From IMG/VR virus record IMGVR_UViG_2713896784_000014: DNA of 5,125 nucleotides; one strand, 5' to 3'. Below are positions 153 to 5,125 of the stretch, piece after piece. Below the pieces are notes generated by a model. That model had not been told where the DNA came from, ran no database searches, and saw only the letters and a program-made list of their open reading frames with translations. This stretch comes from a virus (Duplodnaviria; Heunggongvirae; Uroviricota; Caudoviricetes). Every line of letters starts with the position of its first letter. The stretch's first letter is position 1. A program made the position numbers and the translations under genes.

Positions 153-431
153 TCATCTGATACCGAACTTTACCCTCGAACATCCGGAAGAAATCCGGCA
201 TGAATATTGTTGGTCAANNNNNNNNNNNNNNNNNNNNNNNNNNNNNNNNNNNNNNNNNNNNNNNNNNGTATTACGAGCCAGGGCTTCCGGATGGCTGTCG
301 TCGTACAGTTCCGGGAACGTCATCCCCAGCTCGAAATAAGTCCGGGCTATTTCAGCTGCAGGAACTTTCTCACCGTCCGGATAGGCCCAGGCATTGATCG
401 CCATGCGGATGTGCTCATGTTTGATTTTCAT
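153..431 (-). CDS. YdaT-like protein (so-called toxin YdaT / CII-like family of Rac-type prophages); reading frame passes through a 50-N assembly gap so true length is uncertain
   Basis: ORF track 153..431 (-). N-terminus MKIKHEHIRMAINAWAYPDGEKVPAAEIARTYFELGMTFPELYDDSHPEALARN; the MKIKHEHI start is characteristic of YdaT-family proteins as I recall them. Start ATG 431-429 overlaps the cro-like stop TGA 430-428 (ATGA coupling). SD-like AAGGGGG lies 4 nt upstream. Stop TGA 155-153 sits inside the SD of the next gene. Confidence 0.6.
   Translation of the reverse strand: MKIKHEHIRMAINAWAYPDGEKVPAAEIARTYFELGMTFPELYDDSHPEALARNXXXXXXXXXXXXXXXXXXDQQYSCRISSGCSRVKFGIR
218..267. other. Assembly gap: run of 50 N
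   Basis: Positions 218-267 are all n in the sequence; the gap length may be arbitrary. Confidence 0.95.
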
Positions 432-655
432 GAATCCCCCTTTCCTTCGCCCTGAGTGGTATCCTTCTTTTTGTAAAGTTCTGGGTTCAAAGATAATTTC
501 CCCTTGGAGTATGCAGCAGCTTCCGCAGCCCTCCCCTTCGGAACTATTTCACCAGGACGCTTACGCCACATGTAAATAGCTTCGCGGGTTATCCCATAAA
601 AATCGGCAACCCTCTGAACAGAACCAAAAAACTGGACAAGTTCATCAACTCGCAT
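428..655 (-). CDS. Cro-like small HTH DNA-binding protein (YdaS/Cro family), 75 aa
   Basis: ORF track 428..667 (-) begins at a TTG; the internal ATG at 655-653 is preceded by a perfect GGAGG (664-660) with a 4-nt spacer, so 655 is the likely start. Protein MRVDELVQFFGSVQRVADFYGITREAIYMWRKRPGEIVPKGRAAEAAAYSKGKL... has a GxxxxVAxxxGITxxAIYxW helix-turn-helix pattern typical of Cro/YdaS-like proteins. It is divergent from the CI-like repressor. Confidence 0.8.
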   Translation of the reverse strand: MRVDELVQFFGSVQRVADFYGITREAIYMWRKRPGEIVPKGRAAEAAAYSKGKLSLNPELYKKKDTTQGEGKGDS

Positions 656-752
656 TTTACCTCCCAAATCTAAGTATTTTTAGATTACAAGATAATTTTT
701 TTTAGGTCAATGCAATCTAAAATAATTTATATTCAATTTGCAGGAGAAAATG
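656..752. promoter_or_regulatory. Divergent immunity-region control region (OR-like) with candidate PR-like promoter on the minus strand and PRM-like promoter on the plus strand
   Basis: 97-bp AT-rich spacer between divergent cro-like and cI-like starts. Minus-strand candidate promoter: -35 TTGACC (plus coords 710-705), 17-nt spacer, -10 TAATCT (687-682). Plus-strand candidate -10 TAAAAT (718-723) or TATATT (728-733). Contains the AATCTAA-N6-TTAGATT palindrome and an extra AATCTAA half-site at 714-720. Confidence 0.6.
667..686. promoter_or_regulatory. Operator-like inverted repeat AATCTAAGTATTTTTAGATT (7-bp arms, 6-bp spacer)
   Basis: Perfect 7-bp inverted arms read directly from the sequence; it overlaps the proposed -10 and start region of the cro-directed promoter. 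A 15/17 match recurs at 1475-1491. Confidence 0.55.
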
Positions 753-1397
753 ATGGAAAGCCTTGGCTTCAGGCTTAAGAGACTTAGAAAAGATAAGGGG
801 CTGACCCAAGTAGAACTGGGTAAGCTTTCAGGCGTGACTGGGGTTACTATAGGGTACTGGGAGAAAGATCTAAACGAACCAGGTAGCAAAGCTCTAAGTA
901 AGTTAGCCCAGGCATTAGGAACTACTGAGTCCTATCTCCTATATGGAGTATCGTCTCCTGAATTATCTTTTGTACAAAGTACCTCAGGCACCAAGATCCC
1001 CTACCTTTCGTGGGGTGAGGCGATTTCTTTCCTAATCTTAAAAGGAGAGAAAACAATGGGAAATGTCGATAGAATCACCACATTCTTTGATGTCGAGGAA
1101 GGTGATTTTGCCGTTTCAATGCCTGATGACACAATGCATAACCCATCAGGATCACCGAGTATCCCAGTTGGTGCTACTGTGATCCTAAGGCCAGGAGAAA
1201 GTTATAAAAATGGCAGCATCGTCGCTGTAATAGTTCCGGATCCGCTTAAAAATGAACCATCTATGACTATAAAGAAATTAGTTATTGATGGGAAGCTTGT
1301 GTATTTAAGCCCTCTCAATCCACGCTATCAGTCATCCTTACTTACACCAGAGTGTAAAATTGTTGCCGTAGCAAAAGGTGTACAGTTCAACTTATAA
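753..1397 (+). CDS. CI-like phage repressor: N-terminal XRE-family HTH plus C-terminal LexA/S24-type autopeptidase domain (214 aa from ATG 753)
   Basis: ORF track 738..1397 starts at TTG; the ATG ATG pair at 750-755 follows AGGAG (742-746), so the start is 753 (6-nt spacer) or 750. HTH segment LTQVELGKLSGVTGVTIGYWEKD. C-terminal segment KKLVIDGKLVYLSPLNPRY closely resembles the lambda CI C-terminus ([20 protein letters not shown], recalled from memory). Candidate catalytic Ser in AVSM (codon 1116-1118) and Lys-Lys in TIKKL (1272-1277). Stop TAA 1395-1397. Confidence 0.9.
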   Translation: MESLGFRLKRLRKDKGLTQVELGKLSGVTGVTIGYWEKDLNEPGSKALSKLAQALGTTESYLLYGVSSPELSFVQSTSGTKIPYLSWGEAISFLILKGEKTMGNVDRITTFFDVEEGDFAVSMPDDTMHNPSGSPSIPVGATVILRPGESYKNGSIVAVIVPDPLKNEPSMTIKKLVIDGKLVYLSPLNPRYQSSLLTPECKIVAVAKGVQFNL

Positions 1398-1418
1398 CCC
1401 GCCACGTCCTTTACTTGA

Positions 1419-1443
1419 GGTCGGCAATGCCGACCTTTTTTTT
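1419..1443 (+). terminator. Rho-independent terminator downstream of the repressor gene
   Basis: Perfect stem GGTCGGC (1419-1425), loop AAT, GCCGACC (1429-1435), followed by eight T (1436-1443), 22 nt after the stop codon. Confidence 0.75.
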
Positions 1444-1446
1444 AAA

Positions 1447-1492
1447 TTAATCTAGATTTACCTTGACTGAAAAACTAAATACTTTTAGATTT
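1447..1492 (+). promoter_or_regulatory. OL/PL-like region: candidate rightward promoter (-35 TTGACT 1463-1468, 17-nt spacer, -10 TAGATT 1486-1491) embedded in operator-like repeats
   Basis: 10-bp perfect palindrome AATCTAGATT at 1449-1458. 17-mer CTAAATACTTTTAGATT at 1475-1491 matches the OR 17-mer CTAAGTATTTTTAGATT (670-686) at 15 of 17 positions and overlaps the proposed -10. Confidence 0.5.
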
Positions 1493-1671: not shown

Positions 1672-1824
1672 ATGGATATGCTCAATCTTGGCAACAATGA
1701 ATCTCTGGTGTGCGGAGTATTCCCCAACCACGACGGCACGTTTACCGCGATGACGTATACCAGAAGTAAAACGTTTAAAACCGAAGCTGGCGCGCATCGC
1801 TGGTTAGCAAGAAACGCTAACTGA
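1672..1824 (+). CDS. Small ORF (50 aa) downstream of the PL-like promoter, hypothetical; possibly a YdaF-like Rac-type small protein
   Basis: Manual translation: ATG 1672 ... TGA 1822-1824 gives MDMLNLGNNESLVCGVFPNHDGTFTAMTYTRSKTFKTEAGAHRWLARNAN. SD GAGG at 1663-1666 with a 5-nt spacer. Absent from the ORF track, presumably because it is below the length cutoff. The family resemblance is a vague recollection and is not verified. Confidence 0.4.
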   Translation: MDMLNLGNNESLVCGVFPNHDGTFTAMTYTRSKTFKTEAGAHRWLARNAN

Positions 1825-2100
1825 TTAGCGCCAGTAAAAACAGGTTTCCACAGGTTAATTTACCCTGAAAAGTCAGGGCATAACACGAAAGCGCACGGCG
1901 AAGTTAGTCTCTCTGTATAGGTCGTCGTTAAATTTAATTCGACCGTGCGCTTCTGGTTGTGGCAATCCGCGAAATGGCGCGGCGGTAAGTATGGCGGGGT
2001 TATTCCTTCCCCCGTTGAGGACACCGGGTTGTCAGGTTGACCATACGCTTAAGTGACNCCCCAGCCACAACAACCTCTGTTATCACTTTTCTGGTGATTC

Positions 2101-2126
2101 GGCGGAAATGGATATCCGCCCTTTTT
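2101..2126 (+). terminator. Candidate intrinsic terminator on the plus strand
   Basis: Stem GGCGGA (2101-2106) and TCCGCC (2115-2120) with an 8-nt loop, followed by CTTTTTAAA (T-run 2122-2126). The long loop and only 6-bp stem make this moderate-confidence. Confidence 0.5.
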
Positions 2127-2304
2127 AAAGTGAATTTTGTGATGCGGTGAATGCGGCTATGCGCACGCGGAACAGTTAAAGCAGTAAGGCGGTCTTTTAC
2201 TGGCGTAACGAGCATCAACTAACCCGACGTTAATTGTTAACTGGTTAACGTCACCTGGAGGCACCAGGCACTGCATCACAAAATTCATTGTTGAGGACGC
2301 GATA

Positions 2305-2493
2305 ATGGAAACGTTATTACCAAACGTTAATACGTCTGAAGGTTGTTTTGATATTGGTGTTCTGCTCAGTAATAAAGCGTTTACTGAGGATGCCATTAAT
2401 ATGCGGAAATATGAGCCTTATCTGCTCAATGATAATTCCATTCTTTCCCGAATTGCCCTTATTAAACTTGGTATTTTCGGAGAACGTCAATGA
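2305..2493 (+). CDS. Hypothetical small early-left protein (62 aa)
   Basis: ORF track 2305..2493 (+). SD GAGGA at 2293-2297 with a 7-nt spacer to ATG 2305. Stop TGA 2491-2493 overlaps the next start (ATGA). Protein METLLPNVNTSEGCFDIGVLLSNKAFTEDAINMRKYEPYLLNDNSILSRIALIKLGIFGERQ; no family recognised. Confidence 0.55.
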   Translation: METLLPNVNTSEGCFDIGVLLSNKAFTEDAINMRKYEPYLLNDNSILSRIALIKLGIFGERQ

Positions 2494-2678
2494 CTTCAGC
2501 ATTTGCACTGGTGATGACGGTTTTTCTTATAACGGGTGAATCACAGAATGTTATTACCGGAATTTATGCCAGTAAAGAATCCTGCCTCCAGGCAAGAGAC
2601 GAGCAAAAAATTTCTGGTGAATGCCTACCGGTAAAAAAAGTATCGCTGTACCTGAATAACGAAACACCGGCTGGATAA
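2490..2678 (+). CDS. Hypothetical small protein (62 aa) with an N-terminal hydrophobic segment (signal peptide or single transmembrane helix)
   Basis: ORF track 2490..2678 (+). ATG 2490-2492 overlaps the upstream stop by 4 bp (translational coupling). Protein MTSAFALVMTVFLITGESQNVITGIYASKESCLQARDEQKISGECLPVKKVSLYLNNETPAG: residues 4-15 are hydrophobic, and the C-terminal part has two Cys. Confidence 0.55.
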   Translation: MTSAFALVMTVFLITGESQNVITGIYASKESCLQARDEQKISGECLPVKKVSLYLNNETPAG

Positions 2679-2773: not shown

Positions 2774-5125
2774 ATGAGTAAAATCTTTATTTGCGCTGCT
2801 ATTCCTGACGAACAGGCCATAAAAGAAGATAGCGCTGTTGCGGTGGCCACTGCCATTGAAGCCGGTGATGAGCGTCGCGCACGCGCAAAATTTCACTGGC
2901 AATTTCTGGAGCAATTCCCGGCAGCTCAGGACTGCGCTTATAAATTTATTGTCTGCGAGGATAAACCCGGCATACCCCGCCCTGCCCTCGATTCCTGGGA
3001 TACCGAATATATGCAGGAAAACCGCTGGGATGAGGAGTCAGCTTCCTTTGTACCGGTCGAACCAGAATCCGATCCGATGAACGTCAATTTTGACAAGCTG
3101 TCCCCTGAAGTACAGAACGCAGTCCTGGTTAAATTCGACACATGCGAAAACATCACCGTTGATATGGTGATTAGCGCACAGGAATTACTACAGGAAGACA
3201 TGGCAACATTCGGCGGACATATCGTTGAAGCGTTGATGAAAATGCCAGAAGTTAACGCCATGTATCCTGAACTTAAACTGCATGCCATCGGGTGGGTTAA
3301 GCATAAATGTGAGCCTGGCGCTAAATGGCCTGAAATTCAGGCAGAGATGCGCATCTGGAAAAAACGTCGCGAAGGTGAACGCAAGGAAACCGGAAAATAC
3401 ACGTCTGTTGTTGATCTCGCCCGCGCCAGAGTCAACCAACAGAACCCTGAAAACGCTGCTGAAAAAACCGGGGCTGTCACTGTTGCCATTCGCCGCGAAT
3501 ACAAACAGACATGGAAAACACTCGACAATGAACTGGCCTGCGCCCTCTGGCCCGGTGATGTGGATGCAGGAAACATTGACGGTACCATCCATCGCTGGGC
3601 GACAAATGAGGTTATCGACAAGGATCGCGAAGACTGGAAGCGTATCTCAGCATCAATGCGCAAACAGCCCGAAGCACTTGGCTATGACCGTCAGACTATT
3701 TTTGGCCTTGTTCGCGAACGTCCGATCGATATTCACAAAGATCCCGTTGCACTGAACAAATATATCAGTGAATACCTGACGACAAAGGGCGTGTTTGAAC
3801 ATGAAGAAACAGACCAGAGCTCTACTGATGCTCTCCAGCCGTCAGCAGCACAAACTGCTCCAGTGGAGACGGCAGAATCCGATACTCAAAAAAATGAAAT
3901 CCTGGTGGAAGCTGAACCATCTGTAGAGCGTGAAGGACCATTTTATTTCGTCTTTACCGATAAGGGCGGGGAAAAATACGGCAGGGCAAACAAACTTTCT
4001 GGTCTGGACAAGGCGCTGGCTGCCGGCGGTACCGAAATCTCAAAAGAAGAATATTTTGCCCGAAAAAATGGCACATACACGGGCTTACCGCAAAATGTGG
4101 ATACCGCTGAAGATTCCGAACAATCAGAGCCGGTAAAAGTTACCGCTGACGAAGTAAACAAAATTATGCAGGCAGCCAATATCAGCCAGCCTGACGCCGA
4201 TAAATTGCTTGCTGCATCACGTGGTGAATTTGTTGAAGGGATTAGCGACCCGAATGATCCGAAATGGGTGAAAGGGATCCAGAGTCGCGACGCTGAGGAC
4301 CAGAATCAGCCCAACGTGAAACAAAATGAGCCAGAAGCGGAACAAAACAGCCCGGATACGCAACAAAACGGGCCAGAAGAACAACAACCAGAACCAGCAG
4401 TGCAACAGGAACTGGAAAAAGTTTGCACCGCATGCGGTCAGACCGGTGGCGGCAACTGTCCTGACTGTGGTGCGGTGATGGGGAACGCAACCTACCTGGA
4501 AACATTCGATGAAGAGAATCAGGCTGAAGCTCAGAAAAATGATCCGGAGGAAATGGAAGGCACTGAACATCTGCACAAGGAGAACACTGGCAGCGATCAG
4601 TATCACGCCAGCGATAATAAAACTGGCGAAACAGCAAATCCCTTAATTAAAGTGAACGGTCATCATGAAATCTCATCCACCAGCAGGTTGTGGCACCATC
4701 TGATGATTGACCTTGAAACAATGGGAAAAAATCCTGATGCGCCAATAAACTCTATAGCCGGTAAGTTTTTTGATCCGGCAACCGGAGAGATGGGGCCAGA
4801 ATTCAGCAAAACTATCGATCTGGAAACCGCAGGTGGGGTCATCGATCGGGACACCATTAAGTGGTGGCTGAAACAGTCACGCGAAGCACAATCCTCCATT
4901 CTGACCGATGAAATCACGTTGGATGATGCACTGCTGCAATTCCGGGAATTTATCGACGAAAACTCCGGTGAATTTTTTGTTCAGGTCTGGGGTAACGGTG
5001 CAACTTTCGACAACGTGATTTTACGCCGTTCATATGAACGGCAGGGGATCCCCTGCCCGTGGCGTTACACCAATGATCGCGATGTAAGAACGATGGTTGC
5101 TCTGGGACTGGTGATGGATTTCGAC
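2774..5125 (+). CDS. recE: RecE-like recombination exonuclease (exodeoxyribonuclease VIII-like), 784 codons with the 3' end beyond the window; C-terminal part carries DEDD/DnaQ-like 3'-5' exonuclease motifs
   Basis: Manual codon-by-codon reading from ATG 2774 (in-frame stop TAA at 2765-2767 just upstream) finds no stop codon through 5125. Missing from the ORF track, presumably because it has no stop in the window. Contains DKLLAASRGEFVEGISDPNDPKWVKGIQ, which I recall as RecE-like. C-terminal motifs MIDLETMG (Exo I, about 4703-4726) and WGNGATFDN (Exo II, about 4991-5014). Sits where exo/bet-type recombination genes lie in lambdoid early-left operons. The gene symbol is by family resemblance only. 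Confidence 0.85.
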   Translation, partial: MSKIFICAAIPDEQAIKEDSAVAVATAIEAGDERRARAKFHWQFLEQFPAAQDCAYKFIVCEDKPGIPRPALDSWDTEYMQENRWDEESASFVPVEPESDPMNVNFDKLSPEVQNAVLVKFDTCENITVDMVISAQELLQEDMATFGGHIVEALMKMPEVNAMYPELKLHAIGWVKHKCEPGAKWPEIQAEMRIWKKRREGERKETGKYTSVVDLARARVNQQNPENAAEKTGAVTVAIRREYKQTWKTLDNELACALWPGDVDAGNIDGTIHRWATNEVIDKDREDWKRISASMRKQPEALGYDRQTIFGLVRERPIDIHKDPVALNKYISEYLTTKGVFEHEETDQSSTDALQPSAAQTAPVETAESDTQKNEILVEAEPSVEREGPFYFVFTDKGGEKYGRANKLSGLDKALAAGGTEISKEEYFARKNGTYTGLPQNVDTAEDSEQSEPVKVTADEVNKIMQAANISQPDADKLLAASRGEFVEGISDPNDPKWVKGIQSRDAEDQNQPNVKQNEPEAEQNSPDTQQNGPEEQQPEPAVQQELEKVCTACGQTGGGNCPDCGAVMGNATYLETFDEENQAEAQKNDPEEMEGTEHLHKENTGSDQYHASDNKTGETANPLIKVNGHHEISSTSRLWHHLMIDLETMGKNPDAPINSIAGKFFDPATGEMGPEFSKTIDLETAGGVIDRDTIKWWLKQSREAQSSILTDEITLDDALLQFREFIDENSGEFFVQVWGNGATFDNVILRRSYERQGIPCPWRYTNDRDVRTMVALGLVMDFD

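Follow-up and report, generated by a model that had tools for sequence, protein, structure and literature searches.

A dicF-type untranslated region in an Escherichia coli O157:H7 prophage, with a truncated dicF allele and a covarying upstream RNA fold

What does a lambdoid prophage keep in 480 nucleotides of its early-left operon that hold no sizeable open reading frame on the plus strand? The question is raised by positions 1825-2304 (here, the gap) of a 5,125-nucleotide DNA from a virus of the Caudoviricetes, IMG/VR record IMGVR_UViG_2713896784_000014, which is referred to as the window throughout. In a lambdoid prophage of the type found as Sp14 in E. coli O157:H7 strain Sakai, this gap makes up the untranslated dicF region of an early-left operon of the dicBF type. 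The best explanation of the gap as a whole, and one that we consider very probable, is that it forms a cassette for the maturation of dicF-region RNA and for attenuation. In outline such a region is already explained by the dicBF literature. To this we add a truncated dicF allele, which probably does not function as DicF, and a strongly covarying, widely distributed and uncatalogued RNA fold immediately upstream of it.

The window holds the immunity genes and the early-left part of an O157:H7 lambdoid prophage, and the gap itself is 99.8% identical to many O157:H7 chromosomes. In Sakai its equivalent lies at 2,707,415-2,707,894, within a region annotated as "prophage Sp14, lambda-like phage". 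RefSeq annotation agrees with the Pfam gene calls, and the flanking gene order and annotation place the gap between ydfA (DUF1391) and dicB. From about 1860 to 2304 the window aligns collinearly with the ydfC-dicB intergenic region of the K-12 prophage Qin, which contains the annotated dicF, and the homologous ~455 nt are themselves untranslated in K-12. Like Qin (Kim), the window has an operon running from ydfA to dicB-ydfD under a cI/Cro-like switch, and the two share an RNase III stem, a conserved core, an AU-rich linker, a GGCGG...CCGCC terminator base and a distal 21-bp duplex. Unlike Qin, the window lacks ydfB and ydfC, a difference confined to the sequence upstream of about 1860, and where Qin has the short DicA it encodes a complete repressor of the cI/LexA type that includes an S24 peptidase domain. 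The locus is not covered in Tree 2014, the HnrS paper or the Pas small RNA papers.

An earlier examination of the letters, the original prediction, had taken the gap for a structured regulatory platform in the early-left transcript rather than junk, had listed four sets of symmetric elements in it, and had likened the first to the lambda boxB hairpin. Homology to the K-12 dicF region bears out the regulatory RNA and the terminator; the likeness to boxB fails, as discussed below, and dicB, ydfA and dicF had gone unrecognised. By direct reading, the hairpin CCCTGA-AAAG-TCAGGG is found at 1863-1878, the 10-bp inverted repeat as AAGCGCACGG (1889-1898) with CCGTGCGCTT (1943-1952), 100% complementary over 10 nt, and CCGCG-N6-CGCGG at 1967-1982. 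The terminator-like hairpin, GGCGGA/TCCGCC at 2101-2120 followed by CTTTTT to 2126, is the dicF terminator. The palindrome TTAAATTTAA is present one base away from where it had been placed, at 1928-1937 rather than 1929-1938. The symmetry seen in the repeats and in the CCGCG element is real, and what had been missed is that these elements belong to two separate functional modules. The plus strand indeed has no open reading frame of 60 or more amino acids in the gap, the longest being 31 and 37.

RNA folding, covariation across homologs and an Rfam scan had been proposed as checks on the prediction. Both flanks of the gap fold beyond shuffled controls, 1855-1960 at -34.4 kcal/mol (z = -3.9) and 2072-2310 at -84.5 kcal/mol (z = -5.0), with none of 200 shuffles as stable in either case. 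The middle block, 1956-2071, is energetically ordinary (z = -1.4), yet it is strongly backed by covariation in 37 copies. The leader of the PL-like promoter, 1498-1675, has no excess structure (z = +0.6). Rfam scans of the whole window (E up to 1) and of 1825-2304 (E up to 10) gave no family above threshold, only a sub-threshold match to STnc100 and chance matches to COG2908, IS009 and snoR101, and ARAGORN found no tRNA or tmRNA-like gene. The COG2908 RNA match (3587-3625, minus strand; 20.2 bits against a gathering threshold of 58.7) and the IS009 match (2618-2668, plus strand; 20 bits against 117) both lie within coding sequence and were set aside as chance.

The processing of this region is known from K-12. 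There the polycistronic RNA begins at dicBp (bioRxiv 10.1101/2023.04.14.536235; PMC5069750), and the preprint describes a 190-nt DicF that accumulates in stationary phase and whose 5' end depends on RNase III and lies "between positions 813 and 814" (bioRxiv 10.1101/2023.04.14.536235). The 53-nt DicF has an RNase E-dependent 5' end and ends by intrinsic termination, and the 3' end of a 72-nt form is made by RNase III cleavage (PMC5069750; bioRxiv 10.1101/2023.04.14.536235).

In the window, the 10-bp inverted repeat lies at the core of an imperfect stem-loop of 21 pairs. Across 31 homologs, 96.8% of the alignment cells in this stem are paired, as compared to 29-36% in slid registers, and ten of its pairs vary, solely by wobble-compatible single changes. 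The K-12 cut was located in two ways: going back 190 nt from the 3' end of DicF leads to 2246/7 in our K-12 Qin record (L002), and counting +813 from dicBp gives about 2250/1, where dicBp (TTGACC-17-TAATCT, start near L002 1438) was read by eye, the consensus promoter scan having found none. Both estimates fall at window 1950-1955, where the stem has its base, so that at the homologous position an extended duplex of about two helical turns surrounds the mapped cut. By analogy with K-12, RNase III cleavage near 1950-1955 would create the 5' end of a long DicF-family RNA.

Further downstream, the annotated start of K-12 dicF (L002 2383) aligns with window 2088, and a short dicF allele, a positional ortholog of DicF, occupies this site. 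It spans 2088-2121, with a U-tract to 2126, and its RNA would be 34-39 nt long as opposed to 53 nt in K-12. The allele retains the 5' UUUCUGGUGA and the GGCGG/CCGCC terminator base but lacks ~19 nt of the DicF inner stem-loop, in place of which there is a 10-nt loop. As expected of a DicF, it lies upstream of dicB in an untranslated region and combines a single-stranded 5' end, 13 nt of which are free, with a Rho-independent terminator (minimum free energy (MFE) -10.7 kcal/mol). The Rfam scans of window and gap returned no match to the DicF family RF00039 (gathering threshold 48 bits), for which K-12 dicF, as positive control, scored 76.7 bits.

Pairing of the canonical and short forms was compared by 14-nt sliding-window duplexes, since unrestricted RNAduplex over-extended, against the translation-initiation regions of three validated K-12 targets, ftsZ, xylR and pykA, whose pairing regions are described in PMC5069750. 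At xylR, canonical DicF pairs through nt 6-18 at -20.4 kcal/mol and the short form reaches -13.1 kcal/mol at a different site; at pykA, the values are -19.5 (nt 30-43) and -9.9 kcal/mol; and at ftsZ, -13 to -15 (nt 22-35 and 40-53) and -8.3 kcal/mol. The short form has lost the segments that pair with all three targets, and its RNA is therefore unlikely, as far as the sequence tells, to serve as a DicF-type regulator of division or metabolism. At the leader of pch, the PerC-family gene of Sp14, the canonical form gave -16 and the short form -11 kcal/mol, with no clear site.

Among 5426 complete E. coli genomes the short allele is present in 442 (8%) and canonical dicF in 3969. The O157:H7 genome that was examined has three canonical copies plus the short one, and reviews give four dicF copies for Sakai and 86-24. 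Among the RefSeq records listed, a dicF feature is annotated only in K-12 MG1655; those of O157:H7 and most others show no noncoding RNA under either form, and because annotation is so rare, counts of dicF copies that rely on it would miss nearly all.

Between the RNase III stem and the linker lies a conserved core of ~116 nt, which we call module B. Its structure consists of helices P1 to P4, a length-variable hairpin with a pyrimidine-rich loop, and a candidate pseudoknot. When this explicit structure was placed on an alignment of 37 diverse copies (A3), 95.9% of cells were paired, against 25-56% in slid registers, and 11 pairs had changed on both sides, against 0-2; none of 500 shuffles reached the observed values. 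The stem of the variable hairpin appears in different taxa as CGGGG/CCCCG, CUGGG/CCCAG, CAGGG/CCCUG, CAGGUG/CACCUG and CCCGGG/CCCGGG, while the loop stays pyrimidine-rich. The pseudoknot is supported by a U-A pair in phage P7, three U.G intermediates in P7-like contigs and one C-G double change in phage P1, with no disruptions. It is the plus strand that carries the G.U pairs of the module, which assigns the structure to the early-left transcript.

The window has helices P1 to P4 and both invariant blocks of the module, GGCGCGGCGGYAAGYAUGGC and CAGGUUGACCAURCGC, and the invariant nucleotides are located in loops and junctions. A covariance model, R1, scores 140.7 bits at the O157 locus. The single masked base of the gap, at 2058, reads A in an identical O157:H7 record (L001), which gives a U-A pair in P4, beside a mismatch at 2029/2059. 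No Rfam family matches module B in the window, the gap or the K-12 region. Within the module, the invariant GGCGGUA (1981-1987) matches, letter for letter, the 5' strand of the terminator stem of canonical dicF in K-12 (L002 2398-2404) and in phage cdtI (L004), and in the short allele of the window the match is reduced to GGCGG. One may speculate from the letters that GGCGGUA could in principle compete for the terminator 3' strand, UACCGCC.

BLAST against phages indicates that module B travels independently of its flanks. It is present in P1 and P7, and the P1 record NC_005856 labels it "dicF-like region" (misc_feature 68791-68892). Searches with a pattern built from the two invariant blocks placed module B at 17 loci in species-representative genomes, of Escherichia, Shigella, Citrobacter, Serratia, Trabulsiella, Erwinia and Izhakiella plus three contigs from gut metagenome-assembled genomes, and it occurs in at least 120 viral contigs. 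By blastn, 61 phage records hold it. The three metagenomic contigs (L017, L018 and L022, assigned to Bacillota, Veillonella parvula and Collinsella) have exact matches to the P1 or Qin type of module and are most likely mis-binned enterobacterial or phage contigs rather than spread beyond Enterobacterales. Two phage records assigned to hosts other than enterobacteria, Actinobacillus phage vB_Apl-pPE4 (L006) and Aeromonas phage AP1 (H45), show an E. coli-type dicA/ydaT/kil/recE context or dicB leader at 80-85% identity and may reflect mis-assignment or chimera; in pPE4 the 3' strand of helix P1 and the dicF-like hairpin are tandemly duplicated.

The setting of the module is as constant as its fold. 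Among the annotated lambdoid loci it is without exception in the sense direction and downstream of the repressor gene; P1 and P7 have it starting ~20-40 nt from where transcription from the C1-controlled promoter Pban begins. An intrinsic terminator hairpin follows 20-45 nt after the module in 13 of the 13 diverse loci inspected; in the lambdoid ones its GGCGG...CCGCC base and U-tract are conserved and its interior is highly variable. Like the window, P1 and P7 have the same fold (R1 scores of 91.5 and 99 bits), a short single-stranded stretch and the intrinsic terminator, directly downstream of a repressor-controlled early promoter, here in the leader of the ban operon. Unlike the window, they have the module close to the transcription start with no RNase III stem upstream, their outer helix and terminator hairpin are unrelated in sequence, and tRNAs, tciABC and ban lie downstream in place of dicB. 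Because initiation at Pban lies near the module and termination follows it, a P1 RNA of ~180 nt is expected, which would stand beside the 190 nt of Qin and the 171-176 nt predicted for the window. The conserved unit thus seems to be built of a structured 5' body, then a linker, then a terminator hairpin that varies; on sequence comparison, a family of DicF-like units exists, and K-12 DicF is one member of it.

Two further features of these loci were seen, one in the terminator and one beyond it. In Erwinia, Izhakiella, Trabulsiella, Serratia and Salmonella phage F1055 (L025, L026, L023, L014, L005), a Shine-Dalgarno sequence and start codon, for example AGGAGAGCGAAGATAATGTTCTACCGTGGTACCGCCTTTTTT, lie in the loop or 3' half of the terminator hairpin, ~45-110 nt after module B, so that an open reading frame would begin inside the terminator. 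In phage cdtI (L004 ~3153-3240), a perfect 19-bp duplex, CAAAACAGAGAAGAGCATC ... GGTGTTCTTCTCTGTTTTG, stands downstream of the dicF-like terminator; it also occurs in L020, L025 and L054 and is absent from the window. It encloses ACGGGCTCATAACCCAATCC, which resembles what we take to be the anticodon stem-loop of initiator tRNA (GGGCUCAUAACCC).

The last part of the gap is a distal module. Its outermost element is a long-range duplex of 21 bp (2129-2149/2269-2289), inside which lie two conserved hairpins and a centre that varies. The 3' end of the 72-nt K-12 DicF (L002 2454) corresponds to window 2140, within the 5' arm of this duplex, and the variants of its arms across homologs are wobble-compatible on the plus strand only. 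The module resembles STnc100 (RF02076): positions 21-154 of that model, with the outer helix and the CACCUGGAGGCACCAGG hairpin among them, find their counterpart at window 2133-2282, and the scores are 29.3-29.5 bits in the window and 34.1 in K-12, below the gathering threshold of 47. STnc100/PasD elements proper are located close to Q in the late region, unlike the window element upstream of dicB, and the match is for this reason treated as resemblance rather than membership.

Table 1. Coordinates of genes, signals and RNA elements in the window
Feature	Position	Strand	Basis or remark
Cro-like gene	428-667	-	Pfam
cI/LexA-like repressor (helix-turn-helix + S24 peptidase)	738-1397	+	Pfam
Terminator after repressor gene	1417-1437		Terminator scan
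PL-like promoter TTGACT-17-TAGATT, counterpart of dicBp	1463-1491	+	Consensus scan
ydfA homolog (DUF1391), final open reading frame before the gap	1672-1824	+	PF07151, E = 1.3e-28; RefSeq
Small hairpin CCCUGA-AAAG-UCAGGG	1863-1878	+	Sequence, MFE fold; partly conserved
21-pair imperfect stem-loop, putative RNase III site	1880-1960	+	MFE fold z = -3.9
Pairs of the 21-pair stem	1880-1884/1956-1960, 1886-1887/1954-1955, 1889-1898/1943-1952, 1899-1902/1938-1941
Module B, ~116-nt conserved core	1956-2071	+	Alignment A3, covariation; body of long DicF-family RNA
Helix P1, outer stem	1956-1963/2064-2071	+
Helix P2 (CCGCG-N6-CGCGG element)	1967-1971/1978-1982	+
Helix P3	1983-1986/2023-2026	+
Length-variable hairpin, pyrimidine-rich loop	1995-1999/2010-2014	+
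Helix P4	2027-2034/2054-2061	+
Candidate pseudoknot	1989-1994/2041-2046	+
AU-rich single-stranded linker	2072-2087	+	Equivalent to K-12 RNase E cut for short DicF
Short dicF allele: 5' UUUCUGGUGAUUC, hairpin GGCGGA-AAUGGAUA-UCCGCC, U-tract	2088-2126	+	Alignment, terminator scan
Distal module, putative second RNase III site and dicB leader	2129-2289	+	Fold z = -5.0
Conserved hairpins inside distal duplex	2226-2233/2245-2252 and 2254-2258/2264-2268	+
dicB Shine-Dalgarno GAGGA	2293-2297	+
dicB	2305-2493	+	PF05358 DicB, E = 1.3e-35; RefSeq
DUF1482 (YdfD family)	2490-2678	+	Pfam
Large exonuclease	2774 onward	+	Pfam

If the gap operates as a dicF-region cassette (Table 1), inactivation of the cI-like repressor would allow transcription from the PL-like promoter through ydfA into the gap. 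RNase III would cut the 21-pair stem near its base and release the 5' strand of helix P1, and with this strand free, 1956-2071 could close into a compact multi-helix, probably pseudoknotted fold. Some polymerases would stop at the dicF terminator to give an RNA of ~171-176 nt, the counterpart of the K-12 "190-nt DicF", from which RNase E could, by a cut in the AU-rich linker at ~2087/2088, produce a hairpin RNA of 34-39 nt. Read-through RNA would be cut by RNase III in the long-range distal duplex and leave a dicB-ydfD-exonuclease mRNA with a short leader. Expression of dicB would be what the cassette gates downstream, and with the short allele the roles that remain to it would be the dosing of dicB expression and the making of the module-B RNA. 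Which region this is, which of its folds are conserved and that the short allele has lost its pairing are established here directly; the refolding after RNase III cleavage, and any function of module B, are steps that we infer.

Several points weigh against this explanation or qualify it. The cleavage sites are all carried over to the prophage by homology from experiments in K-12, and the mapped RNase III cut is good only to about 5 nt. In K-12, northern blots detected no full-length read-through species (bioRxiv 10.1101/2023.04.14.536235). The 21-pair stem shows no double compensatory change among the 31 homologs, and its support accordingly comes from conservation and the K-12 experiments, not from covariation. 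In module B, the strands of the pseudoknot are mostly fixed by the retrieval pattern, and the window has one U.C mismatch in P4 (2029/2059). Finally, the comparison of DicF targets uses simple duplex energies that ignore accessibility, and new targets for the retained 5' UUUCUGGUGA are possible.

What module B itself does is a narrower question, on which we hold graded views. We tentatively favour a role as the nuclease-resistant, host-factor-binding 5' domain of a discrete RNA of ~175-190 nt, which is possible rather than probable. Alternatively, the module could act in cis as a put-like controller of processive antitermination or attenuation, carrying polymerase through dicF-type and perhaps later terminators, with the released RNAs as by-products. 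This is the more doubtful proposal of the two, and much in the setting of the module speaks for it: the module is always sense and always in the leader of a repressor-controlled early operon (the PL side of lambdoid phages, Pban of P1); the terminator that always follows within 20-45 nt must be passed to express dicB or kil, the recombination genes or P1 ban; the early-left operons of the window and of phage cdtI have no recognisable N-type protein; and the well-known N-bearing model phages are missing from the 61 module-holding phage records. Invariant nucleotides in loops and junctions are likewise what recognition of a conserved host machine would lead one to expect. In phage HK022, put is also a structured RNA in the early-operon leader of an N-less lambdoid phage, upstream of terminators, and a functional analogy is possible.

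The likeness to put goes no further. HK022, with its putL and putR, has no similarity to module B by blastn or by R1 run on its full genome (E up to 10); module B has four helices and a pseudoknot in ~116 nt, whereas put has two stem-loops in ~70 nt; and R1 finds one copy per phage and none on the PR side, in the cdtI genome as in the O157 prophage, unlike the put copies on both the L and R sides. Homology to put was rejected on the lack of any HK022 match and of a PR-side copy. In addition, no alternative pairing of the module or linker with the terminator is conserved across classes. Excision by RNase III, or the start at the P1 transcription start site, together with the accumulation of the 190-nt species in K-12, fits a discrete RNA at least equally well. 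We rank the discrete RNA slightly above antitermination in cis because the ends of the module are precise in P1 and Qin and the 190-nt species accumulates.

An antiterminator or attenuation switch unrelated to put is part of a broader proposal, which we regard as doubtful in the same measure as the put-like controller. In this proposal module B would stand for a class of phage leader RNAs that has yet to be catalogued, with a compact, probably pseudoknotted fold. Without exception the module has a repressor-controlled early promoter on one side and a dicF-type terminator on the other, and it would act on a conserved host machine, either on RNA polymerase or as a decoy for a host protein. The class would range from lambdoid prophages (Escherichia, Citrobacter, Salmonella, Serratia, Erwinia, Trabulsiella, Izhakiella) to P1 and P7. 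If this were true, DicF would be only the variable 3' appendage of an older unit.

It is improbable that module B is a cis-antisense "immunity" RNA in the manner of P1 C4 or P4 CI, the variable loop of which would block the ribosome-binding site of the first downstream gene. The conserved scaffold with a variable, pyrimidine-rich loop resembling an anti-Shine-Dalgarno sequence, the start sites inside the terminator hairpins of several diverged phages, and the toxic division inhibitors downstream, as we take icd to be in P1 immI, would all suit such a role. However, in 15 diverse loci the cognate loop energies rank only 2-14 of 15 against non-cognate ones, with z from -1.95 to +1.17 against shuffled sequences, and there is no Rfam match to C4 or a related family. 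A tRNA-like role for the module was likewise rejected, as ARAGORN finds none.

The likeness to boxB that the original prediction saw in the hairpin at 1863-1878 would, if pursued, make the region a lambda-type nut site at which this hairpin recruits an N-type antiterminator and the other symmetric elements are accessory protein-binding sites. We consider this very improbable. The hairpin does lie downstream of a PL-like promoter, as nutL does; its CCCUGAAAAG resembles the 5' half and loop of what we take to be lambda boxB (GCCCUGAAAAAGGGC), with which it presumably shares the string CCCUGAAAA. Lambda boxB has a 5-bp stem and a GNRA-like pentaloop (GAAAA/GAAGA), whereas this hairpin has a 6-bp stem and an AAAG tetraloop. 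It stands ~365 nt from the promoter, beyond ydfA, with no adjacent boxA, and no N-type antiterminator gene was found among the open reading frames of the operon by Pfam, PHROGs or RefSeq annotation. In the 31 homologs its inner three pairs are paired in 91% of cells and its outer three in 76%, with one compensatory U-A variant; the outer pairs are broken in about a third of the homologs, K-12 included (TCAGAC), and one homolog class has unrelated sequence in its place. The remaining elements, moreover, are accounted for by the RNA processing stems and module B.

A heptamer of the form TGC(G/T)CT(T/C) is conserved directly 5' of helix P1 in all lambdoid classes. It reads TGCGCTT in the window (1946-1952), TGCTCTC in cdtI and TGCTCTTT in Trabulsiella, and it occurs at the same position in L005, L023 and L025. 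In loci of the dicBF type this heptamer makes up the 3' arm of the RNase III stem; it also resembles what we take to be the boxA core, GCTCTT.

That the gap is instead decayed coding sequence, a scar of ydfB/ydfC loss or a site of hidden minus-strand genes with incidental hairpins, as the two genes present in K-12 between ydfA and this region, the overlapping minus-strand open reading frames (54, 72 and 79 amino acids) and the hypothetical proteins annotated over the module in some phage records might suggest, is hardly credible, since the homologous sequence is untranslated in K-12, ydfB and ydfC account only for a difference further upstream, and the compensatory changes, the plus-strand G.U-only variation and the length differences of 1 nt and 19 nt between close homologs form the pattern of an RNA structure and not of codons. 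The minus-strand frames have no Pfam match or RefSeq annotation, and they span those length differences; therefore, they are not conserved genes.

Outside the gap, half-sites TCTAGATTTA / TAGATTTATT are repeated around the PL-like promoter (1445-1495, inverted repeat I7), and similar TCTAA/TTAGA strings occur in the cro-cI intergenic region (667-737); from their arrangement in the letters, both sets are probably repressor operators. The dicB stop codon overlaps the start of the ydfD-like gene (ATGA, 2490-2493), as it does in K-12 (L002 2795-2798), which suggests translational coupling. Besides the single base in P4, the window has a masked run of 50 N at 218-267. Beyond the window, the prophage (L149) carries a PerC-family (pch-type) regulator gene at 16379-16693, sodC, three tRNAs downstream of Q and an integrase gene disrupted by IS1203, and the prophage adjoins a tRNA-Ser gene.

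DicF and DicB are textbook prophage regulators of host division, metabolism and, in enterohaemorrhagic E. coli, virulence, and the "dicF copies" of O157:H7 are counted in studies by sequence identity. Standard models miss the dicF position of Sp14-type prophages, which occur in about 8% of complete E. coli genomes, and since the targeting segments are lost there, arguments from dicF copy number and the design of deletions should treat the Sp14 copy separately. The strongest structural constraint in the dicF region lies not on DicF but on the upstream fold of ~116 nt; most E. coli genomes have this fold, as does P1, and it has no Rfam family. If module B were defined, it would become clearer why there is a "190-nt DicF" and by what means N-less early-left operons pass their promoter-proximal terminator.

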